NCBI GenBank assembly: GCA_046350055.1 | Contig: JAXMBC010000001.1 | Span: 248,244-312,243, forward strand | DNA from: Gemmatales bacterium | Lineage (GTDB): Bacteria; Planctomycetota; Planctomycetia; Gemmatales; HRBIN36 | DNA length: 64,000 nt | Direction: 5' to 3' | Shown: piece by piece, positions 925-60,179 of the stretch | Layout: every line of letters begins with the position of its first letter | How positions within the stretch are numbered: position 1 is the first letter of the stretch | Translations under genes and position numbers: made by a program | Notes under the pieces: model-generated | The model's input: the letters and a program-made list of their open reading frames with translations, nothing else | The model's database searches: none | What the model was told of the DNA's origin: nothing

Positions 925-1908
925 TTACTTCGGCATGGCTTTGACGGTGCCGACATCGACGGTGCCGCCGGCGGCGAGGCTGAGCGTCTTGTTATCGCGC
1001 TTGCCGTAGCCGGTGAGGTAGCCGGTTTCGTGCCAGATGACGATCTTGCGGCTGCCTGCGGGGACGTTCTTGATCTCAAACTTGCCATCCTTATCGGTGA
1101 CCGCAAAGTAAGGGTGGTCAATGCACCAGCCATACCCCTTCATCCAGGGATGCGAGCCACAGGCTACGGAGAGAGCATTGCCTTCGGCATCCAGCTTGAT
1201 TTCCTTTTCGGTGCCGGGAGGAATCTGCACATTGCGGTCGTTCTTGATGCCCTTGATGACCACATTATGTGCCACGGGATCAGGGTTTTTCGCGGTGATG
1301 GACTGGCCAGCACGGATCGCAAAAACACGAGGCGTGAAGACGCAGTATGGCTGATCCAGCACGAAGGGTGCAGGCGTGGCTTTCAGATCGGGATGCACCG
1401 GCAACTTTTCATCGCGTTCCTGCAGGATGAAGACGACCACGCCGGCCAGGCCCTTGTTGCTGGGATTCACATCCCAGACCTTGTCGAGCAATGCCCCTTT
1501 GGCCAGGCAATGTCCCTGGTCCGAAGTGACTTTGCATTCTTCCGCCTTGGGGATGGTATCGCCGCCAAAGACAACCTGGCCTTTGACAGTGGCCCAGCCA
1601 TCGGCAACAGGAGCGGTATTCACGGAGATGGGGGTACCCACGCCTGGAGCGGCGGCACAACAACTGGTGTTGGCTGGGGATGTCTGGGCAGTAGCAGCCT
1701 TGGCTCGAGAAAGCACATCGCAGCAACCCTGACCTGAGCCTTCGGTACAGCAATCATCGTCTGATGTGGCAGGAGTCACGAGAGGCACGTACTTCTGCTG
1801 GCAGCAGCCCGGCTTGCTCAGCCCCGTGTATTCCGAATAGAGGTGGCTGGCTTCATAGCCGGAGTAGCCCAGGAGTGCCAAGCCTCCGACCAGCATGGCT
1901 GTTTTCAT
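925..1908 (-). CDS. secreted cupredoxin-domain protein (amicyanin-like type-1 Cu site) with a carboxypeptidase-regulatory-like C-terminus
   Basis: Signal-like N-terminus MKTAMLVGGLALLG from ATG 1908. His in DPVAHNVV plus C-G-S-H-P-W-M matches the C-x2-H-x2-M ligand spacing of amicyanin. The C-terminal DKDGKFEIKNVPAG is typical of a CarboxypepD_reg-like fold. Confidence 0.7.
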   Translation of the reverse strand: MKTAMLVGGLALLGYSGYEASHLYSEYTGLSKPGCCQQKYVPLVTPATSDDDCCTEGSGQGCCDVLSRAKAATAQTSPANTSCCAAAPGVGTPISVNTAPVADGWATVKGQVVFGGDTIPKAEECKVTSDQGHCLAKGALLDKVWDVNPSNKGLAGVVVFILQERDEKLPVHPDLKATPAPFVLDQPYCVFTPRVFAIRAGQSITAKNPDPVAHNVVIKGIKNDRNVQIPPGTEKEIKLDAEGNALSVACGSHPWMKGYGWCIDHPYFAVTDKDGKFEIKNVPAGSRKIVIWHETGYLTGYGKRDNKTLSLAAGGTVDVGTVKAMPK

Positions 1909-2159: not shown

Positions 2160-2948
2160 ATGCGACACGTTTCACGCTGGCTCTTGCTCGGCATGACTTT
2201 CCTGCTGGTCACCGGCAGCCAGGCTGCGGATGTTCCCAATCTGCGTGGCAGTTATGAAGGCACTTTCGTGAATGCCAGCAGCCACAACTTCCAGGCTGCG
2301 TTGTTGCCTTACATTGAGCAGGACAACCTTCGAAAGTTAAGTGGCCAACTGGCTCTGGATGGGTTCAACCCCGTCACGTTCTCCGGCATCATCAACTCTA
2401 ACAATGTCTGTACCTGTTTTGGCAGTGGTGCGGGAACCAACTTCACTTTTCAGGCCAGGTGGGAGCGGCTGGGCAATGGTGCGGGCGCAGTCTTCGGCAC
2501 CGCCAACCTGCCCGGCAGCAATGGCAAAGCCCGGGGAACGCTATTCCTGTTCCGGGGGATGACGCCCACGACCGGTGTGAAGCCAGTCATCCTTGGTAAC
2601 TATGCAGGTACCTTCACCACCGCTGGCTCGACTACTGGCGGAACTGTTGTCACACAGATCACCGACGGCACGAGTAACATCGTTGATGGCACCAGCAACA
2701 TCAGGATTGCCCTGGGGCTGGTGAAGAACAATGTCGCGAATCAATTCGCCCTGATTGGTGACGTGGGCATCGATCGCAGCGTGGTAGCCATCGGGGTGAA
2801 CGCCAATGGCCAGGTGGCAGTAGTGCGTGGCTACGTGGAACAGGACAACTTGCGAGGCACACGTCAACTGGTTGCCACGGTTCAAATCAAATCTGCTGCT
2901 GGTGTCGTCCTGAGCACCCATTCGATCATTGCCATACTCATTGGCTGA
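2160..2948 (+). CDS. secreted hypothetical protein with internal repeats
   Basis: Signal peptide MRHVSRWLLLGMTFLLVTGSQA, with GGAG 8 nt upstream of the ATG. Carries the motif Y(I/V)EQDNLR twice and a tandem DGTSNI repeat. Confidence 0.7.
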   Translation: MRHVSRWLLLGMTFLLVTGSQAADVPNLRGSYEGTFVNASSHNFQAALLPYIEQDNLRKLSGQLALDGFNPVTFSGIINSNNVCTCFGSGAGTNFTFQARWERLGNGAGAVFGTANLPGSNGKARGTLFLFRGMTPTTGVKPVILGNYAGTFTTAGSTTGGTVVTQITDGTSNIVDGTSNIRIALGLVKNNVANQFALIGDVGIDRSVVAIGVNANGQVAVVRGYVEQDNLRGTRQLVATVQIKSAAGVVLSTHSIIAILIG

Positions 2949-2967
2949 TACACTGCTGAAAAAGAAA

Positions 2968-3022
2968 AGAGCCATGACTCCAATCAGTTGCCTCTCCCAA
3001 CAACTGAACGAGTCATGGCTCT
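2968..3022 (+). terminator. 13-bp stem hairpin downstream of the 2160..2948 gene
   Basis: agagccatgactc (2968..2980) pairs with gagtcatggctct (3010..3022). The loop is 29 nt and there is no T-tract, so this is weak as an intrinsic terminator. Confidence 0.3.
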
Positions 3023-3239
3023 AAGCTTGGCGATTGAAGCAAGTGCTGACTGACAGGCCTCTCCCTCCAGCCAGCCAGCACTTACCTCAAATCGATGCTG
3101 AATACTAAAGCATCGGGTGTGCCAAACGTGCCGACTGATAGACTTTTTCTTGACAATTTGACGCAAGTCATTTAAAGGTAATGCATTACGGATTGAGATT
3201 GAAACGCATGCCCTCTTCGTTAAACGCACAAAATGCAGA

Positions 3240-3268
3240 CATCCCTGCCTAGATGCTAAGCAGGGATG
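3240..3268 (-). terminator. hairpin downstream of the ABC-2 operon
   Basis: catccctgc (3240..3248) pairs with gcagggatg (3260..3268), with an 11-nt loop. It lies 26 nt past the minus-strand stop at 3294 and is followed on the minus strand by a moderately T-rich tail. Confidence 0.45.
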
Positions 3269-3293
3269 CAGGAGAGTGCCTAACTTCGTGTCA

Positions 3294-4358
3294 CTATTGC
3301 CAGCGGAAGATCTTGAGAGCGATCAGGAATGTAATCGTCCCCCATAGAAGAAGGCCGACGATCTGCCAGCCGATCTGAAACAGCCCTGCTCCTTCATTCA
3401 TGACTGCTCGTAGAGCATCGTTCATTAAGGTTAATGGCAGCGCACGAATAAACGGCTGGACTGTCTCGGGATAACGATCCGCGCTGAAGAACACACCACT
3501 CAGCACCCACATGGGGAGCATGACGAGGTTCATCAGACCGGAAGCAGCTTCCAGGGTCTTGGCCCGACTGGCAACGAGCAGACCGATTCCAGAGAAGGTG
3601 ACGCCACCCAGGAAGATGAGCAGCACAACCAGCCAGCCGCTGCCCACAATCCGCACGTCGAAGAAGAAGTAGGCAAAGAGGAGGAGCAGCAGCACTTCGG
3701 GAAGCATGAAGACAAAGCGACTGGCCATCACTGCCATCAGGAAATCGGGCCGACGCATGGGAGTGGCGAGGAATCGCTTGAGGAGCTTGCGAATGCGCAT
3801 GTCCACGATGGCGAAGCCGACGCCGAACATGCCGCCGCCCATCATACCCATGCCCAGCAGGCCCGGGACCAGGAAATCAATGTAACGACCACCAGGTTCA
3901 TTGAACTCTGCGGTGCTGCTTTTGAGGACATCCACGCGGCCACGGGCTTTCTGCAGCACATCATCGACAGATTTCTGAGCCAGGCTGCTCTCGGGCCGAA
4001 CGGGGTCGGCCAGGTATGTCACTTCTGCGCCGCTTGTGCCACCATGCTGGACAATCAGGCTGGTCTTTCCGGTGCGCAGCCGCTGCTTGCATTCGGCAAA
4101 CGGGGCACGGTGGAGCTTGAACTTCTCGCCCATCGCCTTCAGGCTGCTTTCGACAAATGCAGCGTGAGGCCCTTCTTCAATATCGATGATGTACTGCTCA
4201 TCAGCCTTCTTCTCACGGAAGGCAATGCCGAGCACCATCGTCATCAGGAGAGGGAAGCCGTAGACCCAGAAGATCGCTTCCGGCTCGCGGAAGAACTCCT
4301 TGATGCGGCAATAGGTAAGTTGCCAGAAAGGCTCCCATCGGGAAGGAGTGTCATTCAT
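3294..4358 (-). CDS. ABC-2 type transporter permease
   Basis: 354 aa with multiple TM segments in the C-terminal half and a large loop after TM1, the typical ABC-2/DrrB-like layout. Its start overlaps the stop of the upstream ATPase (ATGA at 4355..4358). Confidence 0.85.
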   Translation of the reverse strand: MNDTPSRWEPFWQLTYCRIKEFFREPEAIFWVYGFPLLMTMVLGIAFREKKADEQYIIDIEEGPHAAFVESSLKAMGEKFKLHRAPFAECKQRLRTGKTSLIVQHGGTSGAEVTYLADPVRPESSLAQKSVDDVLQKARGRVDVLKSSTAEFNEPGGRYIDFLVPGLLGMGMMGGGMFGVGFAIVDMRIRKLLKRFLATPMRRPDFLMAVMASRFVFMLPEVLLLLLFAYFFFDVRIVGSGWLVVLLIFLGGVTFSGIGLLVASRAKTLEAASGLMNLVMLPMWVLSGVFFSADRYPETVQPFIRALPLTLMNDALRAVMNEGAGLFQIGWQIVGLLLWGTITFLIALKIFRWQ

Positions 4359-46406: not shown

Positions 46407-47582
46407 TCACTTTGTAGCCAGTTCCACACACACCACCGCATCGCTGCTGCGTAAATACAGCCGTGTCCCCACCAGGGCTGGATGTGCATAGAGCCCTTTC
46501 TCATCGGGGAAGACTTTCAGCCTGCCCAGGAGATTGAACTTTGCAGGCGTTGCCTCCACCAGCAAGAGTTCACCTTCGGACGTAGTGATGAGCAACCGCT
46601 TTTCGCTGGCCATAATGCTGGTGTGATTGGCAAAAGCATCATCCTCCGCTCGCCAAATGGTTTTCAGACCATTCCTGACATCAAGGCAAACCATGTCGCG
46701 CCAGACGCCATAGAGATGATCACCGACAATGACAGGGCTGTGGGTCTCGGGCGTCAGGTCCATGCTTGCAGCCAGCGGCTCAGGCTTGATTTTCCCGTCA
46801 GCGTGGAAGGCATACAGTCGGGTGCCATTGTTCTCGGTGGTAACGACCAGGTGTTCACCCGTCACCATCGGTGTGGGCACGTTGTAATCGCTCTCTTTCT
46901 TCGGCTTCAGCGTCCATAGTCGCTGACCGGTGGCGAGATCCCAGCCACCCAGGGTGCTGGCATCGTGCCCGATGATCTGCTTCTTGCCACCGAGCGTAGC
47001 CACGATCAGCGAACCATAGGAGGCAGGCTGGCCGGGAGTTTTCCAAAGCACCTTGCCACTGAGTGGCTCCAGGGCGACCAGTGATGCATCAGGGGCTCCG
47101 GGAGCGAGGATTAATTTGCCATCCACTAACAGCGGTGTGCCACAGTGTCCCCAGGTGAGTTTCTCGACATTGAACTCGGCACGAACATCCATCTGCCAGA
47201 CAGGTACACCCGTTTTGAGTTCAACACAATGGAGATGCCCCCAGGCTCCGAAGAAATAAACATGTTCACCAGAAATAAGGGGTGTCGTGCGCGGAGAAGA
47301 ACCATAATCGAGTTCGCCCGGCGCGGGGTGCCGCAAGGCCCACAGCTCTTCGCCAGTCTCCGCCTTCAGGCAGCGGAAGACATCCATGGAGTTGTTCAGC
47401 CCACGTTCGGAGTAGAGTACATATTCGCTGGTGGCTGCCACACCTCCCAGGCCTGGAGAACCTGTACGCGTACGCCAGCGAATAGTCGGCTGGGCTTGCA
47501 ATTTCTCCGGCAGCCAACGAACATGGCCCCGTCGGCCGGGGCCACGCCAGTCAGTCCAGCCTTGTTCATCGATTACTTTTTT
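46407..47582 (-). CDS. PQQ-like (BamB-type) beta-propeller repeat protein, lacking its own start codon and signal peptide; probably expressed as a -1 frameshift extension of, or a homopolymer-indel fusion with, the upstream binding protein
   Basis: The frame is open from 47582. The conserved propeller N-terminal motif W-T-D-W-R-G-P-G-R-R-G is encoded at ~47558..47526, upstream of the first start candidates (TTG 47501, ATG 47387). The repetitive beta-strand pattern has recurrent G-x-x-LW/VW. Confidence 0.7.
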   Translation of the reverse strand, partial: KKVIDEQGWTDWRGPGRRGHVRWLPEKLQAQPTIRWRTRTGSPGLGGVAATSEYVLYSERGLNNSMDVFRCLKAETGEELWALRHPAPGELDYGSSPRTTPLISGEHVYFFGAWGHLHCVELKTGVPVWQMDVRAEFNVEKLTWGHCGTPLLVDGKLILAPGAPDASLVALEPLSGKVLWKTPGQPASYGSLIVATLGGKKQIIGHDASTLGGWDLATGQRLWTLKPKKESDYNVPTPMVTGEHLVVTTENNGTRLYAFHADGKIKPEPLAASMDLTPETHSPVIVGDHLYGVWRDMVCLDVRNGLKTIWRAEDDAFANHTSIMASEKRLLITTSEGELLLVEATPAKFNLLGRLKVFPDEKGLYAHPALVGTRLYLRSSDAVVCVELATK

Positions 47583-48445
47583 TTAGAGGGTACCTGATAG
47601 GCAACGAACCCAGCCTTGGTCTCGAGCGCAGCAAGCAGCGCTGTGTCGCCGGAGACTTTCAACAGGGCTTCCTGCACCCGGTGTTGCTCCGCCGTGGGGA
47701 GCTTTTCATTGATGAATGCGGTGATGAAGGCTACCGGTTCCGTTTCACCAACTACTCGCAGATCCCCCTTCTTGATGGTGCCACAGCCTTCGAGCAGCGG
47801 CTTGGCGTAGCTGGAAATGACAGCTGCAGCTTTGACACCGTTCTTGTGCATATCCAGGATAGCCGTGGCTCCATCACTGCAAGCGGCACAGGTTTCGTGC
47901 TTCTCCTTGGGAGGCACCGCAACCTCATTATCTTTCAGCAGATACAAGGCAGCCTGGTACTTCTCATCGCAATCGGTTGAGCCGAAGAGGATGCGGTAAC
48001 CCTTCAGATCAGCCACTGTCAGGGCGGCGTCCTTGTTGGGTACCACAATAAGGCCGGTCTGGGTGGTGCTGCCATCCTTGCCGGTGAGCGAGGCGATGGG
48101 CTTCAGGGATAGTTTGCTGAGTGGCCCCTGATGGGCGATAACCGAGTGTTTGCCAATAATCAGGTCCGCCTTACCCTGGCTCTTGCGTTCGAGTGCTGCA
48201 GCAAGCGATTCAGCGAAGTGTACCTGTACAGAAATGTTGAGCTGCTGTTCGAGATACTTGGCCAGCTTCTCGTAATCGCGCTGGGCGTAACCTTTCACGC
48301 AATCGCAGGAGAGTGGAGCTGAGAGCGGGTCCATGACGATCATGGTCATAACCTGCTTCTCTTCAGCGCGGGCAGATGGCACGGTGCTCATGCTGAGTGA
48401 CAGGCAGACCGCAAACAGGCTGAGGAAGGCAACGATGCGTTTCAT
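47573..48445 (-). CDS. periplasmic substrate-binding protein, PhnD/SsuA-like fold
   Basis: Signal MKRIVAFLSLFAVCLSLSMSTVPSARA. The two-lobed binding-protein pattern includes DLIIGKHSV and LIVVPNKD. Several Cys pairs (CDC, CAAC). Confidence 0.65.
   Translation of the reverse strand: MKRIVAFLSLFAVCLSLSMSTVPSARAEEKQVMTMIVMDPLSAPLSCDCVKGYAQRDYEKLAKYLEQQLNISVQVHFAESLAAALERKSQGKADLIIGKHSVIAHQGPLSKLSLKPIASLTGKDGSTTQTGLIVVPNKDAALTVADLKGYRILFGSTDCDEKYQAALYLLKDNEVAVPPKEKHETCAACSDGATAILDMHKNGVKAAAVISSYAKPLLEGCGTIKKGDLRVVGETEPVAFITAFINEKLPTAEQHRVQEALLKVSGDTALLAALETKAGFVAYQVPSKKK
47576..47582 (-). promoter_or_regulatory. candidate -1 programmed ribosomal frameshift heptamer A_AAA_AAG
   Basis: The minus strand reads TCT AAA AAA AAG TAA. 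The heptamer is in the X_XXY_YYZ register of the binding-protein frame. The -1 frame continues GTA ATC GAT GAA CAA GGC TGG into the propeller ORF. Confidence 0.45.
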
Positions 48446-48561: not shown

Positions 48562-49851
48562 TCATTTCTGTACGACGAGCTTCTTCCTGGCCAGGATGAA
48601 GATCTTGGAGCCAGGCTGATCGCAGAAGTAGACCTTCTCTTCGTTGGGTGACATTGCGATGGCGACGTTCTTGCAGCCTCCGCTGATCTGTACCTTGCCG
48701 ACGACACCCAGGAACTCGCCCGTAGCACTGAAGCGTTTGACAAAGCCTTCCGATTCAGCGGTGAAGATGTCACCCTTGGCCCCGGCTCGCAGGTTCATGG
48801 GATTACAGCAACCACCAAAGCAGCTCATATCCTTATCGCCAGGTTTGCCCCATTTGCCGAGGGACTTGCCTTCCCTGCTGTAACGGGCAAACTTCTTGAG
48901 GGTGTTCTCTGCTACGAGGATATTCTCGCCTTCACAGCAGATGTCCATCTGGCCGCAACAGCCACCCAGCCCACCGATGACCTGCTTAGGTTCTTCAAAC
49001 TGGTGGTTCATACGCCAGACGGCATAGCCCCAGCCCTTGGTCTCGCCACAGACGATGAAGAGTTCCTTGTCGGAAACAGCGACAGCATTGATGTATCGCA
49101 GCCGGGTAAGGGTCTCGCTCACCACGCTGTCCACCGTACGGCTGGAGTAGTACTTCTCTGACTCCTTGTACGATTCCAGAATCTGCTCATACTGCTTGAT
49201 CATCTGCTTGTCGCGTGCCGTCAATTCATCAGCTTTCTTCTTCTCCAGCTTGTCCTTCATGTCCTTGATCTGCTTGATCTGTTGAGCGAACGATTCCTTC
49301 TCCTGTTTGAGCTGCACTTCCGCGTCCTTCTTCATCTGTTCCTTGTTGCTGCTCAGCTTGGCAATGTGAGGCAGTTCGAGGGTCTTGATGAGCTTGCCAT
49401 CTTTTTCGAAGGTGGCAATGTGAGCATCACCTGCCACGTAGACTTTGCCATCGGGACCGCTGGCAATGCACTGGGCCTTGAAGGGGACATTCCACTGGCG
49501 AATCGCTTTGCCCTCCGAGGAGAAAACCTGCACTTCGCTGGTGACGGCACTTTTGCTATCTGTGGGGGGACCATAACGAGCAGGAGCGACCACTGCCAGG
49601 ATGTTGCCTTCTGCATCAGAGCACAGCGTCTGGAGGGAATTGCCGCTGTGTTTGCCCTTGACCTTGATCTCGACCAGCTTGTCATGCGTGGGGTTGTTCT
49701 TTTCGTCGACTTCCTTCGTGGCAGCAGCACTATCAGCCACTTTTTTGCTTGCAGGAGCCTTGGGCAGCGAGGCATCATCATCGGCCCAGGCACTCAGCGT
49801 CAGAGCGCTCATCACTGCCAGGCCACACAACCAGCTACGCAGATGCTTCAT
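48562..49851 (-). CDS. secreted beta-propeller (NHL-like) protein with a coiled-coil insertion and GGCC motifs
   Basis: Signal MKHLRSWLCGLAVMSALTLSAWA from ATG 49851. A K/E/Q-rich ~70-aa helical insert. Repeated GGCCGQMDICC, FGGCCNPMN and SGGCKNVAI motifs. Confidence 0.7.
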   Translation of the reverse strand: MKHLRSWLCGLAVMSALTLSAWADDDASLPKAPASKKVADSAAATKEVDEKNNPTHDKLVEIKVKGKHSGNSLQTLCSDAEGNILAVVAPARYGPPTDSKSAVTSEVQVFSSEGKAIRQWNVPFKAQCIASGPDGKVYVAGDAHIATFEKDGKLIKTLELPHIAKLSSNKEQMKKDAEVQLKQEKESFAQQIKQIKDMKDKLEKKKADELTARDKQMIKQYEQILESYKESEKYYSSRTVDSVVSETLTRLRYINAVAVSDKELFIVCGETKGWGYAVWRMNHQFEEPKQVIGGLGGCCGQMDICCEGENILVAENTLKKFARYSREGKSLGKWGKPGDKDMSCFGGCCNPMNLRAGAKGDIFTAESEGFVKRFSATGEFLGVVGKVQISGGCKNVAIAMSPNEEKVYFCDQPGSKIFILARKKLVVQK

Positions 49852-49998
49852 GATACGACCCCTGAGAAATCCAACCGTTACTGATATGACGAACTTCAAA
49901 CCAGAACGATTGGTTCGTTCGGTGAATAGATGATAATTCATCCATTGTGCGAGAGCAAGCGAATGTGGTAAGCCATGCTCGAGTTTAATGATTACTCA

Positions 49999-57631: not shown

Positions 57632-60016
57632 CTACTTCTTCGCTTGCATAGAGCTATCTCTGCCACGCAGTGCTGCGTCGGCGGAGATTTGCACCACCAG
57701 GTGGCGGATGTTGAAGCCGTTGTCAGTAAAGTGTTTCGTCATTTCCTGTCGTTTCGATAAGCCATAGGCCCGAATCGGCTGCTTGATCAGATGCTGGAAC
57801 ATCTGTTCGGTAAAGGCTTCATGTACTTCGGGACTGTCAGCCAGGAACTGGGCCAGATCACATACACCATTGAAGTTAACCACTTCGCCTGAGCGTGTCT
57901 GGTAGTAACCGCTGGCGTCGATGGGCTTCTCCTTCTCTTTGGCGCGGAAGCGACCCACCGCATCATATTGCTCCATGGTGAAGCCGAGCGGGTTGATGAT
58001 CTGGTGACAGCTCATGCAGGCCTGAGGCTTGGTCTGCAGGGAGACCCGTTCTCGGGTGGACATGGCTGGGTGCAGTTCCGGAGCGATGGGAGTGACAGCT
58101 TCTGCAGGTGGTCGCAGGAGCAATCCAAGAATACCCCGCGCCAGAAATACTCCGCGGTGAATGGGAGAGGTCTCTCCGACATAGGCGAAGCTGGACATCA
58201 AATACGGATGCGTCAGCACCCCTGCCCGCTTTTCGGTGTTGAGCTTTACTTTCGTGAAACTTTTGTCCTGATGATCGTAGCCGTAGAACCTGGCGAGGCG
58301 GTCGTTGTAGTAGACTTCCTCGCTGAGGAGCAGGTCCTTGAAGTATGCCCGTTCACTCCAGACGACATCAGCCAGAAAGAGATCGAGAGATGTTCGCAGG
58401 TCATGGATCAATTGAGCATCGAAGCCGGGGAAGCGCTTAGGGTCTTTCGCCAGATCGGTGACGCGGTCCAGCTTGAGCCAGTTCCGGATGAACTCATTGA
58501 CCTTGGCCCTGGCATACGGACGGTTCAGCATCCGCCAGCCTTGCTGTTTCACCTGTTCGAGAGTCTTGAGTTTGCCCTCTTTTGCTGCTTTCAACAGTTC
58601 CTGATCAGGAAGTGTATCCCACAAGGCAAAGGACAGGCGGCTGGCGACGGCGTAGTCGTCGTTCTGCTCACCCACTTCACGATACAGGAACTGGGGGGCC
58701 TTGAGGGCCTTGACCACCACCATCTTGACGGCTTCATCGGTGTTCTTCGCTTTGGTGAATGGCATCTCGATGTACCGTTGTTTCTGTTCGTCCGTCAGGG
58801 GCCGACGAAACGCTCGTTCCACGAGGCCGGCACAGTAGTCTTTTACCTTTTTGTCCCGTTCCTTGTCGCCAGCTTTGATATTGGCAAGGCGGTCGAGGTT
58901 ACTTACCACATAGGTGGCTGCATCGAGAGCGGCATCGGTCGCTGCAGCATCCCAGGCTTTGGACACCGTGCTGCCCCGCTCCCAGCCGTAACTGCGATCA
59001 TCGGGCGGGAACGAATTACTGACGACGTAGCTCTGCGGGAACCAGTCGGTAGCCAGGTGAGTACTGGGGATAGGGTGGGCAATGCCGGTTGGTGGCTTCC
59101 ACATCAGGGTGATGAACGCCGGTTGTGGCGGGGCAGCAGCCTTCTTTTCTTTCTTGTCGTCCACACCCTGCTTGGCCTTGCTGAACTCCAGCTTGATGGG
59201 GTACGCCTTGCCGGCCACAAGGTAGATCCCAGCCTTGTACTCGGTGTCGTTGCCTGATTTGACCATGGCATCGATCAGCGGCTTTTCGTGGTTGTTCACA
59301 TGCAGTTTGACAGCCTGGTTGCTTTTGATGATGAAGTCATACCAGCCGGTTTCTGCCGGGAGAACACTGCCTGACCAGTGAATGTAGAATTCATAGTCTT
59401 CGGTCTTGCCGGGTACGGGACTTTTGGTGCCGAAGTCGAAGTCGACGCCGGCATCGAGGCGGTTCAGCACTTTCTTGTCGTTCCGCCAGTGCTTGGCAGC
59501 GAAATAGTCGGCGTTGAGACCACGCTTGTCACCCCACCAGCCAGTGGGCTGTTTGTAGTCGACGACATCTGCCACAGCGAGACGGAGTTGCTTGACGGTG
59601 AGGCGGGAGAGATCGATGCGGGCGGGACGGTTGCGTTCACGGGCCACGCGAGAGTAGAAGGCATCGTGGATGTACTTCGCTACCGCGTCAGCTTCTTCGG
59701 GCTTGAGGGATTCGGGGGCGTCCTCGGGCATCGTCCTGGCGATCTGCTTCGACAGTTGATTGACCGACTTGTCACCTTCCAGGGGTGCGGCGTACTTGTT
59801 CTTGACTCCCTCACCCTGCGGGCCATGACAACGGATGCACTGCTTCTGATAAATCTGCTGGCCGAGTTTGTTCGGCTCGTCGGCGTGCGTGGAAATAGCA
59901 AGAGCGAGCAGAGAAGCAATCGCCAGTGTGCATCGCAATACTGAGATGTTGAGCCTCCACCGCTTACTTCGTGCGCGGCTCCTCGTATCTCCGGTCATGT
60001 TTCCCACACCAGGCAT
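57632..60016 (-). CDS. cytochrome-c-containing DUF1592/DUF1588/DUF1585-type protein with a PA14-like insert
   Basis: CIRCHGP haem c motif near the N-terminus. PA14-like segment GLNADYF...[20 protein letters not shown]...[12 protein letters not shown]-terminal [13 protein letters not shown] is DUF1585-like. Confidence 0.8.
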
Positions 60017-60179
60017 CTATCACCCCCAAGGCGGGACTTTTTTTTAGTATTCGTCACTAATCAGAAGTGAGAGGCGAGCTCTACCCTATTAATCTGAAAT
60101 GTAACCCTTGTCGTGTCAAGGGATTACCCTTCCCCTATAGAATAGCCTCATCTTTTTATCACCAGAAAACAGGCACACC

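Follow-up and report, generated by a model that had tools for sequence, protein, structure and literature searches.

We examined a 64,000-nucleotide (nt) stretch from a Gemmatales bacterium (contig JAXMBC010000001.1, positions 248,244 to 312,243; hereafter 'the window') in which the gene for an exported PhnD-like substrate-binding protein ends at a run of eight adenines (A8) and a BamB-like beta-propeller open reading frame (ORF) continues in the -1 frame. We conclude that this A-run is very probably a site of programmed recoding, whichever machine slips there, from which two proteins would be made – the free binding protein and a longer fusion that carries the propeller. The anatomy of the locus and its deep conservation are observed; the slip itself we infer from them.

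Organization of the locus

The recoded pair is read on the minus strand of the window (Table 1). An initial annotation of this DNA had described two ORFs meeting at an A_AAA_AAG heptamer, and every coordinate, ORF, stop, start and heptamer that it gave was found in the sequence. The binding-protein ORF begins with a Sec-type signal peptide (MKRIVAFLSLFAVCLSLSMSTVPSARA, read from the sequence), and in an AlphaFold2 model residues 2-19 form a helix, with low confidence in the stretch after it. It ends with the codons TCT AAA AAA AAG TAA, for a protein tail of ...SKKK. The -1 frame has a TAA at 47585..47583 and is then open down to 46407, with KKVIDEQGWTDWRGPGRRGHVRWLPEK as its opening peptide. 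Its propeller part comprises 389 codons past the run, and the conceptual fusion is 679 amino acids (aa) long.

The first canonical start in the -1 frame is TTG 47501 and the first ATG is at 47387. Within the window, the propeller ORF has no signal peptide and no start codon ahead of its first conserved motif, and a lipoprotein signal sought on it was likewise not present. Having neither a start nor a signal peptide of its own, the propeller would be made and exported only as part of a fusion.

Two A8 runs occur in the window against 0.67 expected, and at least two were found in 14 of 100 shuffles. The A8 run alone is not significant in the window, and its significance therefore rests entirely on conservation in other genomes. 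The second run (60038..60045, minus strand) lies in an intergenic leader, 22 nt upstream of the ATG at 60016 that opens a gene for a 794-aa cytochrome-c-motif protein. It was rejected as a recoding site because it is intergenic and outside any coding frame.

Table 1. Features of the recoded pair and its upstream neighbour, in window coordinates.
Feature	Position	Strand	Evidence or remark
0-frame ORF, 290 aa, PhnD-like periplasmic substrate-binding protein	48445..47573	-	PF12974, 5e-25 (Pfam)
Slippery homopolymer A8	47577..47584	-	T8 when read on the plus strand
In-phase heptamer A_AAA_AAG	47582..47576	-	A8 plus G 47576, AAA AAA AAG
0-frame stop TAA	47573..47575	-	Sequence; directly after the last run codon, ends the short product
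+1-frame stop TGA	47566..47568	-	Sequence; 8 nt past the run, shuts the other non-productive frame
-1-frame ORF, 391 codons from its opening	46407..47582	-	PF13360 PQQ_2, 2.7e-37 (Pfam)
First conserved propeller motif, W-T-D-W-R-G-P-G-R-R-G	47526..47558	-	Upstream of TTG 47501; model predicted local distance difference test (pLDDT) 78-89
RNA hairpin GGCGUGGCCCCG / CGGGGCCAUGUU, loop GCCGA	47520..47548	-	Begins 27 nt past the heptamer
Upstream partner gene, 459-aa secreted protein	48562..49941	-	tblastn, Pfam

The two ORFs are a single gene in many Planctomycetota

Searching with the 679-aa conceptual fusion identified more than 500 homologues. The best 120 of these are all single ORFs of ~610-880 aa (mostly 660-745) that contain both PF12974 and PF13360, with query coverage of 89-100% (nearly all 94-100%) and identity of 44-54%. 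The single-ORF homologues come from Gimesia, Aeoliella, Bythopirellula, Lacipirellulaceae and Pirellulales. The two ORFs of the window are thus one gene in many Planctomycetota, encoding a PhnD-like binding domain, a linker and a BamB-like propeller.

Alignment with the fused homologues places the junction in a length-variable linker, between a conserved ...LE(T/S)xxGF and W-x-G-W-R-G-P-x-R-D-G, and every invariant residue of the family is kept in both window halves. Over its entire length, the propeller ORF aligns with the C-terminal half of the ~700-aa single-ORF proteins. Its first motif has four invariant residues, W297, G302, R305 and G307, all encoded upstream of TTG 47501, and a nearly invariant one, W300. 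An AlphaFold2 model of the fusion has a mean pLDDT of 85, and its sole internal low-confidence segment, residues 287-296 (PSKKKVIDEQ), is the slip site.

The best Foldseek matches of the propeller are to BamB, at a TM score of ~0.7 normalised to the target, and the propeller is BamB-like and 8-bladed. The two halves share fold and Pfam family with PhnD and BamB, but their scores fall far under the equivalog cut-offs: 37.2 bits against 261.1 for PhnD (TIGR03431), where only the superfamily domain PF12974 passes, and 61 bits against 285.2 for BamB (TIGR03300).

Several cysteines of the binding domain are also conserved. The alignments of fused and of stand-alone proteins both have C47, C49, C189 and C221 without exception, while C159 is nearly invariant in the fused homologues and C186 in the stand-alone ones, and the corresponding motifs are CxC, CxxCSDG and EGCG. 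PhnD-type binding proteins do not usually have such a set, and its presence here suggests disulfide bonds or the binding of a metal or cofactor. Some orthologues have Tat-type twin-arginine leaders (TRRQFV, RRQALA, RREAVK; locus L057 at 2866..3759, proteins P0167, P0179 and P0234). With a Tat-type leader in place of a Sec-type one, the fusion in those species would need to be exported in a folded state.

The split form and its A-run are conserved across Planctomycetota

We asked how widely the split arrangement occurs. Five contigs encode the identical 290-aa protein: one belongs to the NCBI metagenome-assembled genome (MAG) GCA_035429855.1, a Gemmatales bacterium, and the other four to Logan assemblies of separate runs. 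All five are 100% identical to the window, with A8 in each. One of the Logan contigs (L005, from SRR26348420) ends at window position 47572, 5 nt past the A8; assemblers sometimes break at homopolymers.

With the binding-protein half as query, each of the best 120 matches is a stand-alone protein, 250-330 aa long and 53-100% identical. Among the stand-alone binding proteins inspected, nearly all have ...KKK, or KK and 1-6 further residues, at the C terminus, and the residues before them vary. Among 183 cluster representatives, 178 have KK within their last 8 residues and 121 have a KKK terminus.

At the DNA level, we surveyed one genome per GTDB species, comprising 80 loci out of 311 tblastn-positive GTDB species, which with the window makes 81. 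Seventy-one of the 81 are split at a poly-A run. In 55 of these the run is A9 and the propeller is in the -1 frame; 14 (the window included) have A8 and one has A10 with the same frame relation; and a single locus, L044, has A10 with the propeller in the +1 frame. Eight further loci are fused single ORFs, and the remaining two are L058, which is without a run, and L070, which is broken elsewhere. Split loci are labelled Gemmatales/Gemmataceae (Fimbriiglobus, Urbifossiella), Pirellulales/Pirellulaceae (Anatilimnocola), Planctomycetales (Schlesneria) and Isosphaerales (Singulisphaera). One of them lies on a circular 8.9-Mb contig at 300x coverage, which reads gcgcuA8gcUAG with AKKKLVRNE...GWTGWRGPGRDG in the -1 frame.

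The same split state is found from 90% down to ~50% identity, in 70 species. The nearest relatives of the window, at 90, 83, 83, 80, 78 and 77% identity, retain A8 followed by G and TAA, and relatives at 76% and 67% identity have A9. Orthologous loci thus recur as split pairs with a conserved run in some lineages and as a single fused ORF in others, and the proposal in the initial annotation that a -1 shift at the A-run joins binding protein to propeller is strongly supported by a run and frame conserved in 70 species.

Unless stated otherwise, the following statistics were taken over the 70 loci of -1 type. When these are aligned on the run, positions -8 to -1 are A in 70/70 and the ninth position is A in 80%, giving the consensus g-c-A-A8-G-T-A, and the base after the run is G in 57/70, C in 10/70 and T in 3/70. 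The linker around the run is unalignable between species. Lysine codons in the run are 100% AAA, compared with 35% elsewhere in the same genes. The ninth A is the third base of a non-lysine codon, and A occupies 12% of third positions elsewhere in these genes. Across 486 kb of retrieved loci, A or T runs of at least eight number 70 at the site and 6 elsewhere (other runs amount to ~1 per 81 kb). The codon phase of the run differs between loci, whose 0-frame tails include KKK*, KKKN*, KKSR* (also QKKSR) and KKN*, which argues that the nucleotide run is conserved and not the peptide.

The flanking stops show a similar pattern. A 0-frame stop is adjacent to the run codon in 47/70 loci and lies within 6 codons in 70/70, compared with 17% at control positions (p = 1e-37), and the +1 frame meets a stop within 6 codons in 63% of loci compared with 12% of controls (p = 2e-23); p-values in this analysis overstate independence, since the loci are related by descent. 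Despite this kinship, the contrast of the run with saturated synonymous and linker divergence remains very large.

In the -1 frame, the first propeller motif is present in 69/70 loci at a median of 9 codons past the run, a gap that leaves no space for a signal peptide; only 3 of the 69 have room for any leader peptide before the motif, and 53 have no ATG, GTG or TTG between run and motif. Among the orthologues checked, no propeller has an ATG and a signal peptide of its own, and the run is conserved. Export of the propeller by way of the signal peptide of the binding protein, as had been suggested earlier, agrees with the fused orthologues, which place the propeller behind a signal peptide. 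An in-phase A-rich heptamer is present in 70/70 loci and the direction of the shift is -1 in 70 of the 71 split loci. The slippery site and its direction are therefore kept among orthologues beyond coding needs.

The exceptional locus, L044 (JANQPT010000040.1, run near 3850), has an A10 where A9 would give an in-frame fusion. It is either a polymerase-slippage variant that uses a deletion, a recent insertion or an assembly error.

Single-gene lineages differ in whether they keep the run

We examined the junction in lineages where the two halves form one ORF. Fused genes of Aeoliella, Lacipirellulaceae and others have a linker without any A-run of seven or more, and a fused Schlesneria gene retains a decayed GCA AAA AA(C/T). 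In the Gimesia clade, KKKI is kept inside an otherwise variable linker. The Gimesia algae isolate CP036343 (L093, locus positions 1204..1213) has an in-frame A10, GGT AAA AAA AAA ATA, as does an independent Gimesia MAG assembled from Illumina reads with SPAdes; a Gimesia-type contig from the Joint Genome Institute (JGI) has an in-frame A8. Since the A10 is called alike in MAG and isolate, a systematic under-count of run length is excluded. A metagenome scan with the Gimesia protein for more in-frame A10 runs gave 4 loci, of which 1 was useful.

Each Gimesia-type locus (L093, L098 and L099) has a -1-frame stop 2-6 codons past the run. In Gimesia, then, the long form would be the standard product and slippage would yield the short form. 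As far as these genes can be read, the run is retained whether the fusion is predicted to be the standard or the shifted product.

The break in L070 (Lacipirellulaceae long-read MAG CAVWDV010000002.1, ~3900..3960) is of a different kind. This fused-type locus is without an A-run and changes frame in GCC CCC CGG GGG; in contrast to the conserved A-run sites, it looks like an ordinary homopolymer error or a pseudogene.

Proposed mechanism and points against it

We propose that standard decoding would produce the 290-aa exported binding protein, terminating at the TAA right after the A-run. In a fraction of expression events, either a shift at AAA AAA AAG into the -1 frame or one A added to the mRNA would lead to the same 679-aa protein, composed of signal peptide, binding domain, ...SKKK-VIDEQ... 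linker and BamB-like propeller. The A-run would set the ratio of free binding protein to fusion, with the fusion predicted to be the smaller amount.

For the A8G of the window, we regard -1 ribosomal slippage of tRNA-Lys on A_AAA_AAG as the leading candidate for the main route, with confidence evenly balanced. Among bacterial heptamers, this one, when in phase, is the most prone to shift (PMC4066793, PMC3711429). The GeneTack criterion reads a single shift direction among orthologues as ribosomal frameshifting (PMC3711429), and the -1 direction of 70/71 loci points to ribosomal frameshifting on that basis. The adjacency of the 0-frame stop to the run codon in two-thirds of the loci and the stable A8 of the window's clade also favour this route. 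An adjacent stop codon may aid the slip, and a ninth A, where present, could serve a second in-phase heptamer, A_AAA_AAA, or E-site re-pairing.

Several observations weigh against programmed recoding or against its ribosomal form. Planctomycetes probably possess tRNA-Lys(CUU), which would make AAG less shifty; tRNA genes were sought in the window for the tRNA-Lys repertoire, and there are none. The split loci all come from MAGs, though from many laboratories and platforms. L044 needs the opposite shift, and some lineages manage with the fusion alone, so that the free binding protein is not universally required. Of the classical -1 stimulators, an upstream Shine-Dalgarno (SD) sequence is missing and a structure at a fixed spacer of 5-9 nt is not apparent: SD-like 4-mers occur upstream of the site in 10% of cases compared with 23% at control positions, and pairing probability past the run has no sharp onset at +5 to +9. 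Loss of the SD at the prfB frameshift site is common in Planctomycetota (PMC10798248), so its lack here is not decisive.

Two stimulators had been suggested in the initial annotation. An AGG 10 nt upstream of the heptamer was put forward as a weak counterpart of the dnaX SD-like stimulator, a role that was rejected given the rarity of SD-like motifs at the site relative to controls. A two-stem structure beginning 6 nt downstream was also proposed. Both stems, AUGAACA (47569..47563) with UGUUCGU (47523..47517) and UGGCCCC (47544..47538) with GGGGCCA (47530..47524), are present in the sequence, but the stimulator role is not supported, and the outer AUGAACA/UGUUCGU stem is missing from the consensus fold of 8 close relatives.

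As a structure, the core hairpin is stable and is kept among close relatives. In the window, its minimum free energy has a z score of -2.9 to -3.9 relative to dinucleotide shuffles, and the consensus fold of the 8 close relatives contains a 9-base-pair stem plus 2 inner pairs with compensatory changes. The spacer from heptamer to hairpin varies from 27 to 36 nt, shifting with linker indels, and the same WxxWRGP coding motif is comparably structured in fused genes; a role for the hairpin as a positioned stimulator was therefore left doubtful. More broadly, the 60 nt past the run have a mean z of -1.07 compared with about -0.1 at nine control offsets (p = 3e-7), and a strong hairpin stands beside the run in 5 of 8 loci whose propeller motif is distant. 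An Rfam scan found no RNA family at the slip site.

The motif codons themselves are prone to pairing. Those for W-P-G-W-R-G-P-x-R-D-G-R often let CCCGGCUGGCGCGG pair with CCGCGACGGCCGGG in a long hairpin (the window, L012, L013, L037, L042, L054, L056 and others), and this is seen in split genes as well as in some of the fused ones. GC-rich codons might produce such a hairpin incidentally, or it could be an mRNA feature that is conserved.

Alternative explanations

The strongest competitor concerns the mechanistic step only. RNA-polymerase slippage, or programmed transcriptional realignment, would add one A, and the resulting mRNA would be read straight into the propeller. This route, absent from the initial annotation, is a serious alternative to ribosomal frameshifting because the run is never below A8 and mostly A9 and because stops close both non-productive frames; we consider it appreciably probable, somewhat less so than the ribosomal one. 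A ribosomal heptamer requires just six A and a G, and yet the run is always at least A8 and is A9 in 55/71. Nine is the length at which A/T runs turn slippage-prone and counter-selected in many bacteria (PMC1088944), and it matches the 9-10 bp RNA-DNA hybrid (PMC5009743). Closure of both frames right past the run is also seen in Thermus thermophilus dnaX. The C or T that follows the run in 13/70 loci, the lack of an SD and of a positioned 3' structure, the in-frame A10 retained in Gimesia and the opposite direction required by L044 all fit the polymerase route, and GC-rich bacteria with two tRNA-Lys species have been argued to favour it (PMC5009743).

Other evidence runs counter to polymerase slippage. 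The window and its 7 nearest relatives (77-90% identical) are stably A8, a length called non-slippery for RNA polymerase in other bacteria (PMC1088944), a point that also counts against recoding at this site in general. Shifts in both directions, as the GeneTack criterion for this route would have it, are not seen apart from the lone +1 of L044. Polymerase slippage offers no reason for a stop adjacent to the AAG codon, the 60 nt past the run are more structured than controls, and a nascent-RNA hairpin upstream of the run, sought as a polymerase-slippage stimulator, gave no signal. The polymerase is probably the larger contributor in the A9 and A10 relatives.

Explanations other than programmed recoding are together unlikely for this window. 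The best of them, which we consider improbable, is that the two genes are translated separately: the propeller would start at TTG 47501, at a later ATG or at a non-canonical codon, perhaps by termination-reinitiation, and the lysine run would be kept for a reason at the protein level, such as a C-terminal KKK tail on the binding protein. Gene callers do annotate two genes, a start at TTG 47501 would give a 364-aa product that retains most of the PQQ_2 match, and in 3 loci a GTG overlaps a TGA stop (GTGA) right past the run. However, the conserved WxxWRGPxRxG precedes every start codon in the window, most relatives are likewise startless up to the motif, the run is followed in most cases by GTA, not a start codon, and a propeller without a signal peptide would remain cytoplasmic, unlike the fused orthologues. 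A KKK tail needs no AAA codons, yet the run uses nothing else, and the varying codon phase means that the peptide is not what is conserved. An exact-protein look-up of the 364-aa TTG-started propeller found none on record; gene callers chose other starts.

A defect – a homopolymer miscall of what is truly an in-frame A9, or a pseudogene that recently lost 1 nt, with slippage perhaps providing a leaky rescue – is very improbable. An in-frame AAA AAA AAA G that lost a single A would inevitably become A_AAA_AAG followed by the TAA, so that the heptamer is not independent evidence and local anatomy cannot tell a device from a defect; fused single-ORF homologues exist, and L070 shows that such breaks occur in some assemblies. 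Against this stand the identical A8 in five assemblies from different runs, the split state in 70 species studied by many groups and methods (the 300x circular contig included), the correctly called in-frame A10 of Gimesia, the retention of all invariant residues in both halves and the selected stops in the 0 and +1 frames. Sequencing error and recent pseudogene were dropped once stand-alone relatives proved mostly to share the KKK end and their DNA the same run and frame.

Phase variation, in which replication slippage would alter tract length and turn the fusion ON or OFF within populations, is just as improbable: although 8-10 nt homopolymers are classical phase-variation sites with exported or surface-exposed products (PMC3711429) and A8, A9 and A10 tracts all occur across species, the five assemblies of the same population are all A8, the 71 split loci include 70 in the same -1 state and no long in-frame run, and the in-frame A10 of Gimesia belongs to a separate clade in which it is itself conserved. 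Tract-length polymorphism was seen neither among the five assemblies nor among the relatives at 77-90% identity, which are all A8 with the same frame relation, and what separates A8 from A9 forms is a substitution, not an indel, at the base preceding the run, so that the frame relation is preserved. Miscall, phase-variable tract and recent pseudogene, the alternatives raised in the initial annotation, are thus effectively excluded by cross-species conservation.

Within programmed recoding, we tentatively offer a further reading, which we hold to be less likely than not. The poly-A tract may act as an evolvable stoichiometry dial for a periplasmic protein needed in two forms, with ribosome and polymerase both contributing and with a ratio that would be physiologically meaningful and possibly condition-dependent. 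The dial settings, equally tentative, would lie single bases apart: A8 or A9, where the fusion comes only from slippage (in Gemmatales, many Pirellulales and Planctomycetales, and Singulisphaera); an in-frame A10, where slippage yields the truncated binding protein (in Gimesia); and no tract, where only the fusion is made (in Aeoliella).

Genomic context and implications

A gene for a 459-aa secreted protein lies immediately upstream of the binding-protein gene in 68/80 related loci (tblastn), and it holds the same place in fused-type loci such as those of Gimesia. The protein has paired-cysteine motifs (GGCCGQMDICC... and CFGGCCNPMN), and its Pfam matches to SGL/NHL beta-propellers are only sub-threshold. 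It probably shares an operon with the recoded pair and is probably a functional partner. No ATP-binding cassette (ABC) transporter genes adjoin the pair. The binding domain, the propeller and the upstream cysteine-rich protein form a predicted conserved module.

Only a small number of ordinary genes on bacterial chromosomes have a conserved programmed frameshift, among them dnaX, prfB, cdd, copA and Mg-chelatase, and the present site would add a case that spans several orders of Planctomycetota. Its natural variants (A8, A9, in-frame A10, no run) provide a comparative series for separating ribosomal from polymerase slippage. The case also bears on annotation. At present such loci are annotated as a binding protein plus a 'PQQ-like' protein with a wrong N-terminal start, or would be taken for pseudogenes with a frameshift; this probably affects more than 1,500 clusters of stand-alone binding proteins in public data.

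Recoding at this site would imply a widespread periplasmic module that is needed in two forms at a set ratio, which offers a handle for finding its function. If the dial reading is true, the site would be among very few phylum-wide recoding events in a cellular, non-mobile gene that does not encode a translation factor, and the first recoding to supply the export signal for a whole domain.

Comparison with known recoding systems

The closest parallel is dnaX, in its forms as an Escherichia coli -1 ribosomal frameshift on A_AAA_AAG, a Thermus thermophilus 9-A transcriptional slippage and a Chlorobium-type two-ORF gene. Like the present locus, dnaX is chromosomal and non-mobile; the same A_AAA_AAG or poly-A yields two proteins with a common N-terminal part, stops lie near the run in non-productive frames, and polarity varies by lineage, as between Gimesia and Gemmatales (PMC5009743, PMC3711429). 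Where dnaX encodes a replicase subunit, the family here is an unrelated one of exported binding protein and beta-propeller. Unlike dnaX, the present site lacks an SD-like stimulator on its 5' side and a clear hairpin at a spacer of ~6 nt, the shift in the window would extend the protein rather than truncate it, and the shifted part needs the upstream ORF for export.

The orfA-orfAB arrangement of IS3/IS911 is similar in that the upstream ORF ends soon past an A-rich slippery motif and the downstream -1 ORF is without an efficient start of its own, so that the fusion needs a shift. The class of IS3/IS911-family and IS630-type elements uses both ribosomal and polymerase slippage (PMC1088944). 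Unlike these elements, the present pair is not part of a mobile element but occurs in single copy within a conserved three-gene neighbourhood, and it has no transposase domains and no pseudoknot or clearly positioned stem-loop.

In Bacillus subtilis cdd, a -1 frameshift at CGA_AAG beside a stop, which relies on an upstream SD-like sequence, adds a short extension of unknown use. The slip in cdd, like the one proposed here, falls on an AAG lysine codon directly before the 0-frame stop; unlike cdd, the site described here has no SD, and a whole 389-aa domain would be added. In Shigella flexneri mxiE, two overlapping ORFs are fused by transcriptional slippage on a T/A run, and here as there the long, functional product would arise only after homopolymer slippage joins two ORFs (PMC1088944), but mxiE encodes a cytoplasmic regulator of one genus and the present site spans several orders of a phylum.

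By its sequence features, the site resembles dnaX and IS3 in its in-phase heptamer, its open start-less -1 ORF and its conserved position and direction, and it has no SD-type stimulator and no clear positioned 3' structure. It also corresponds in part to the definition of transcriptional realignment, with stops near the run in both non-productive frames. Our literature search found no earlier description of the site, and the GeneTack survey of 1,106 genomes included only 2 Planctomycetes. The locus appears to be a hitherto undescribed example of a bacterial chromosomal gene with programmed frameshifting.

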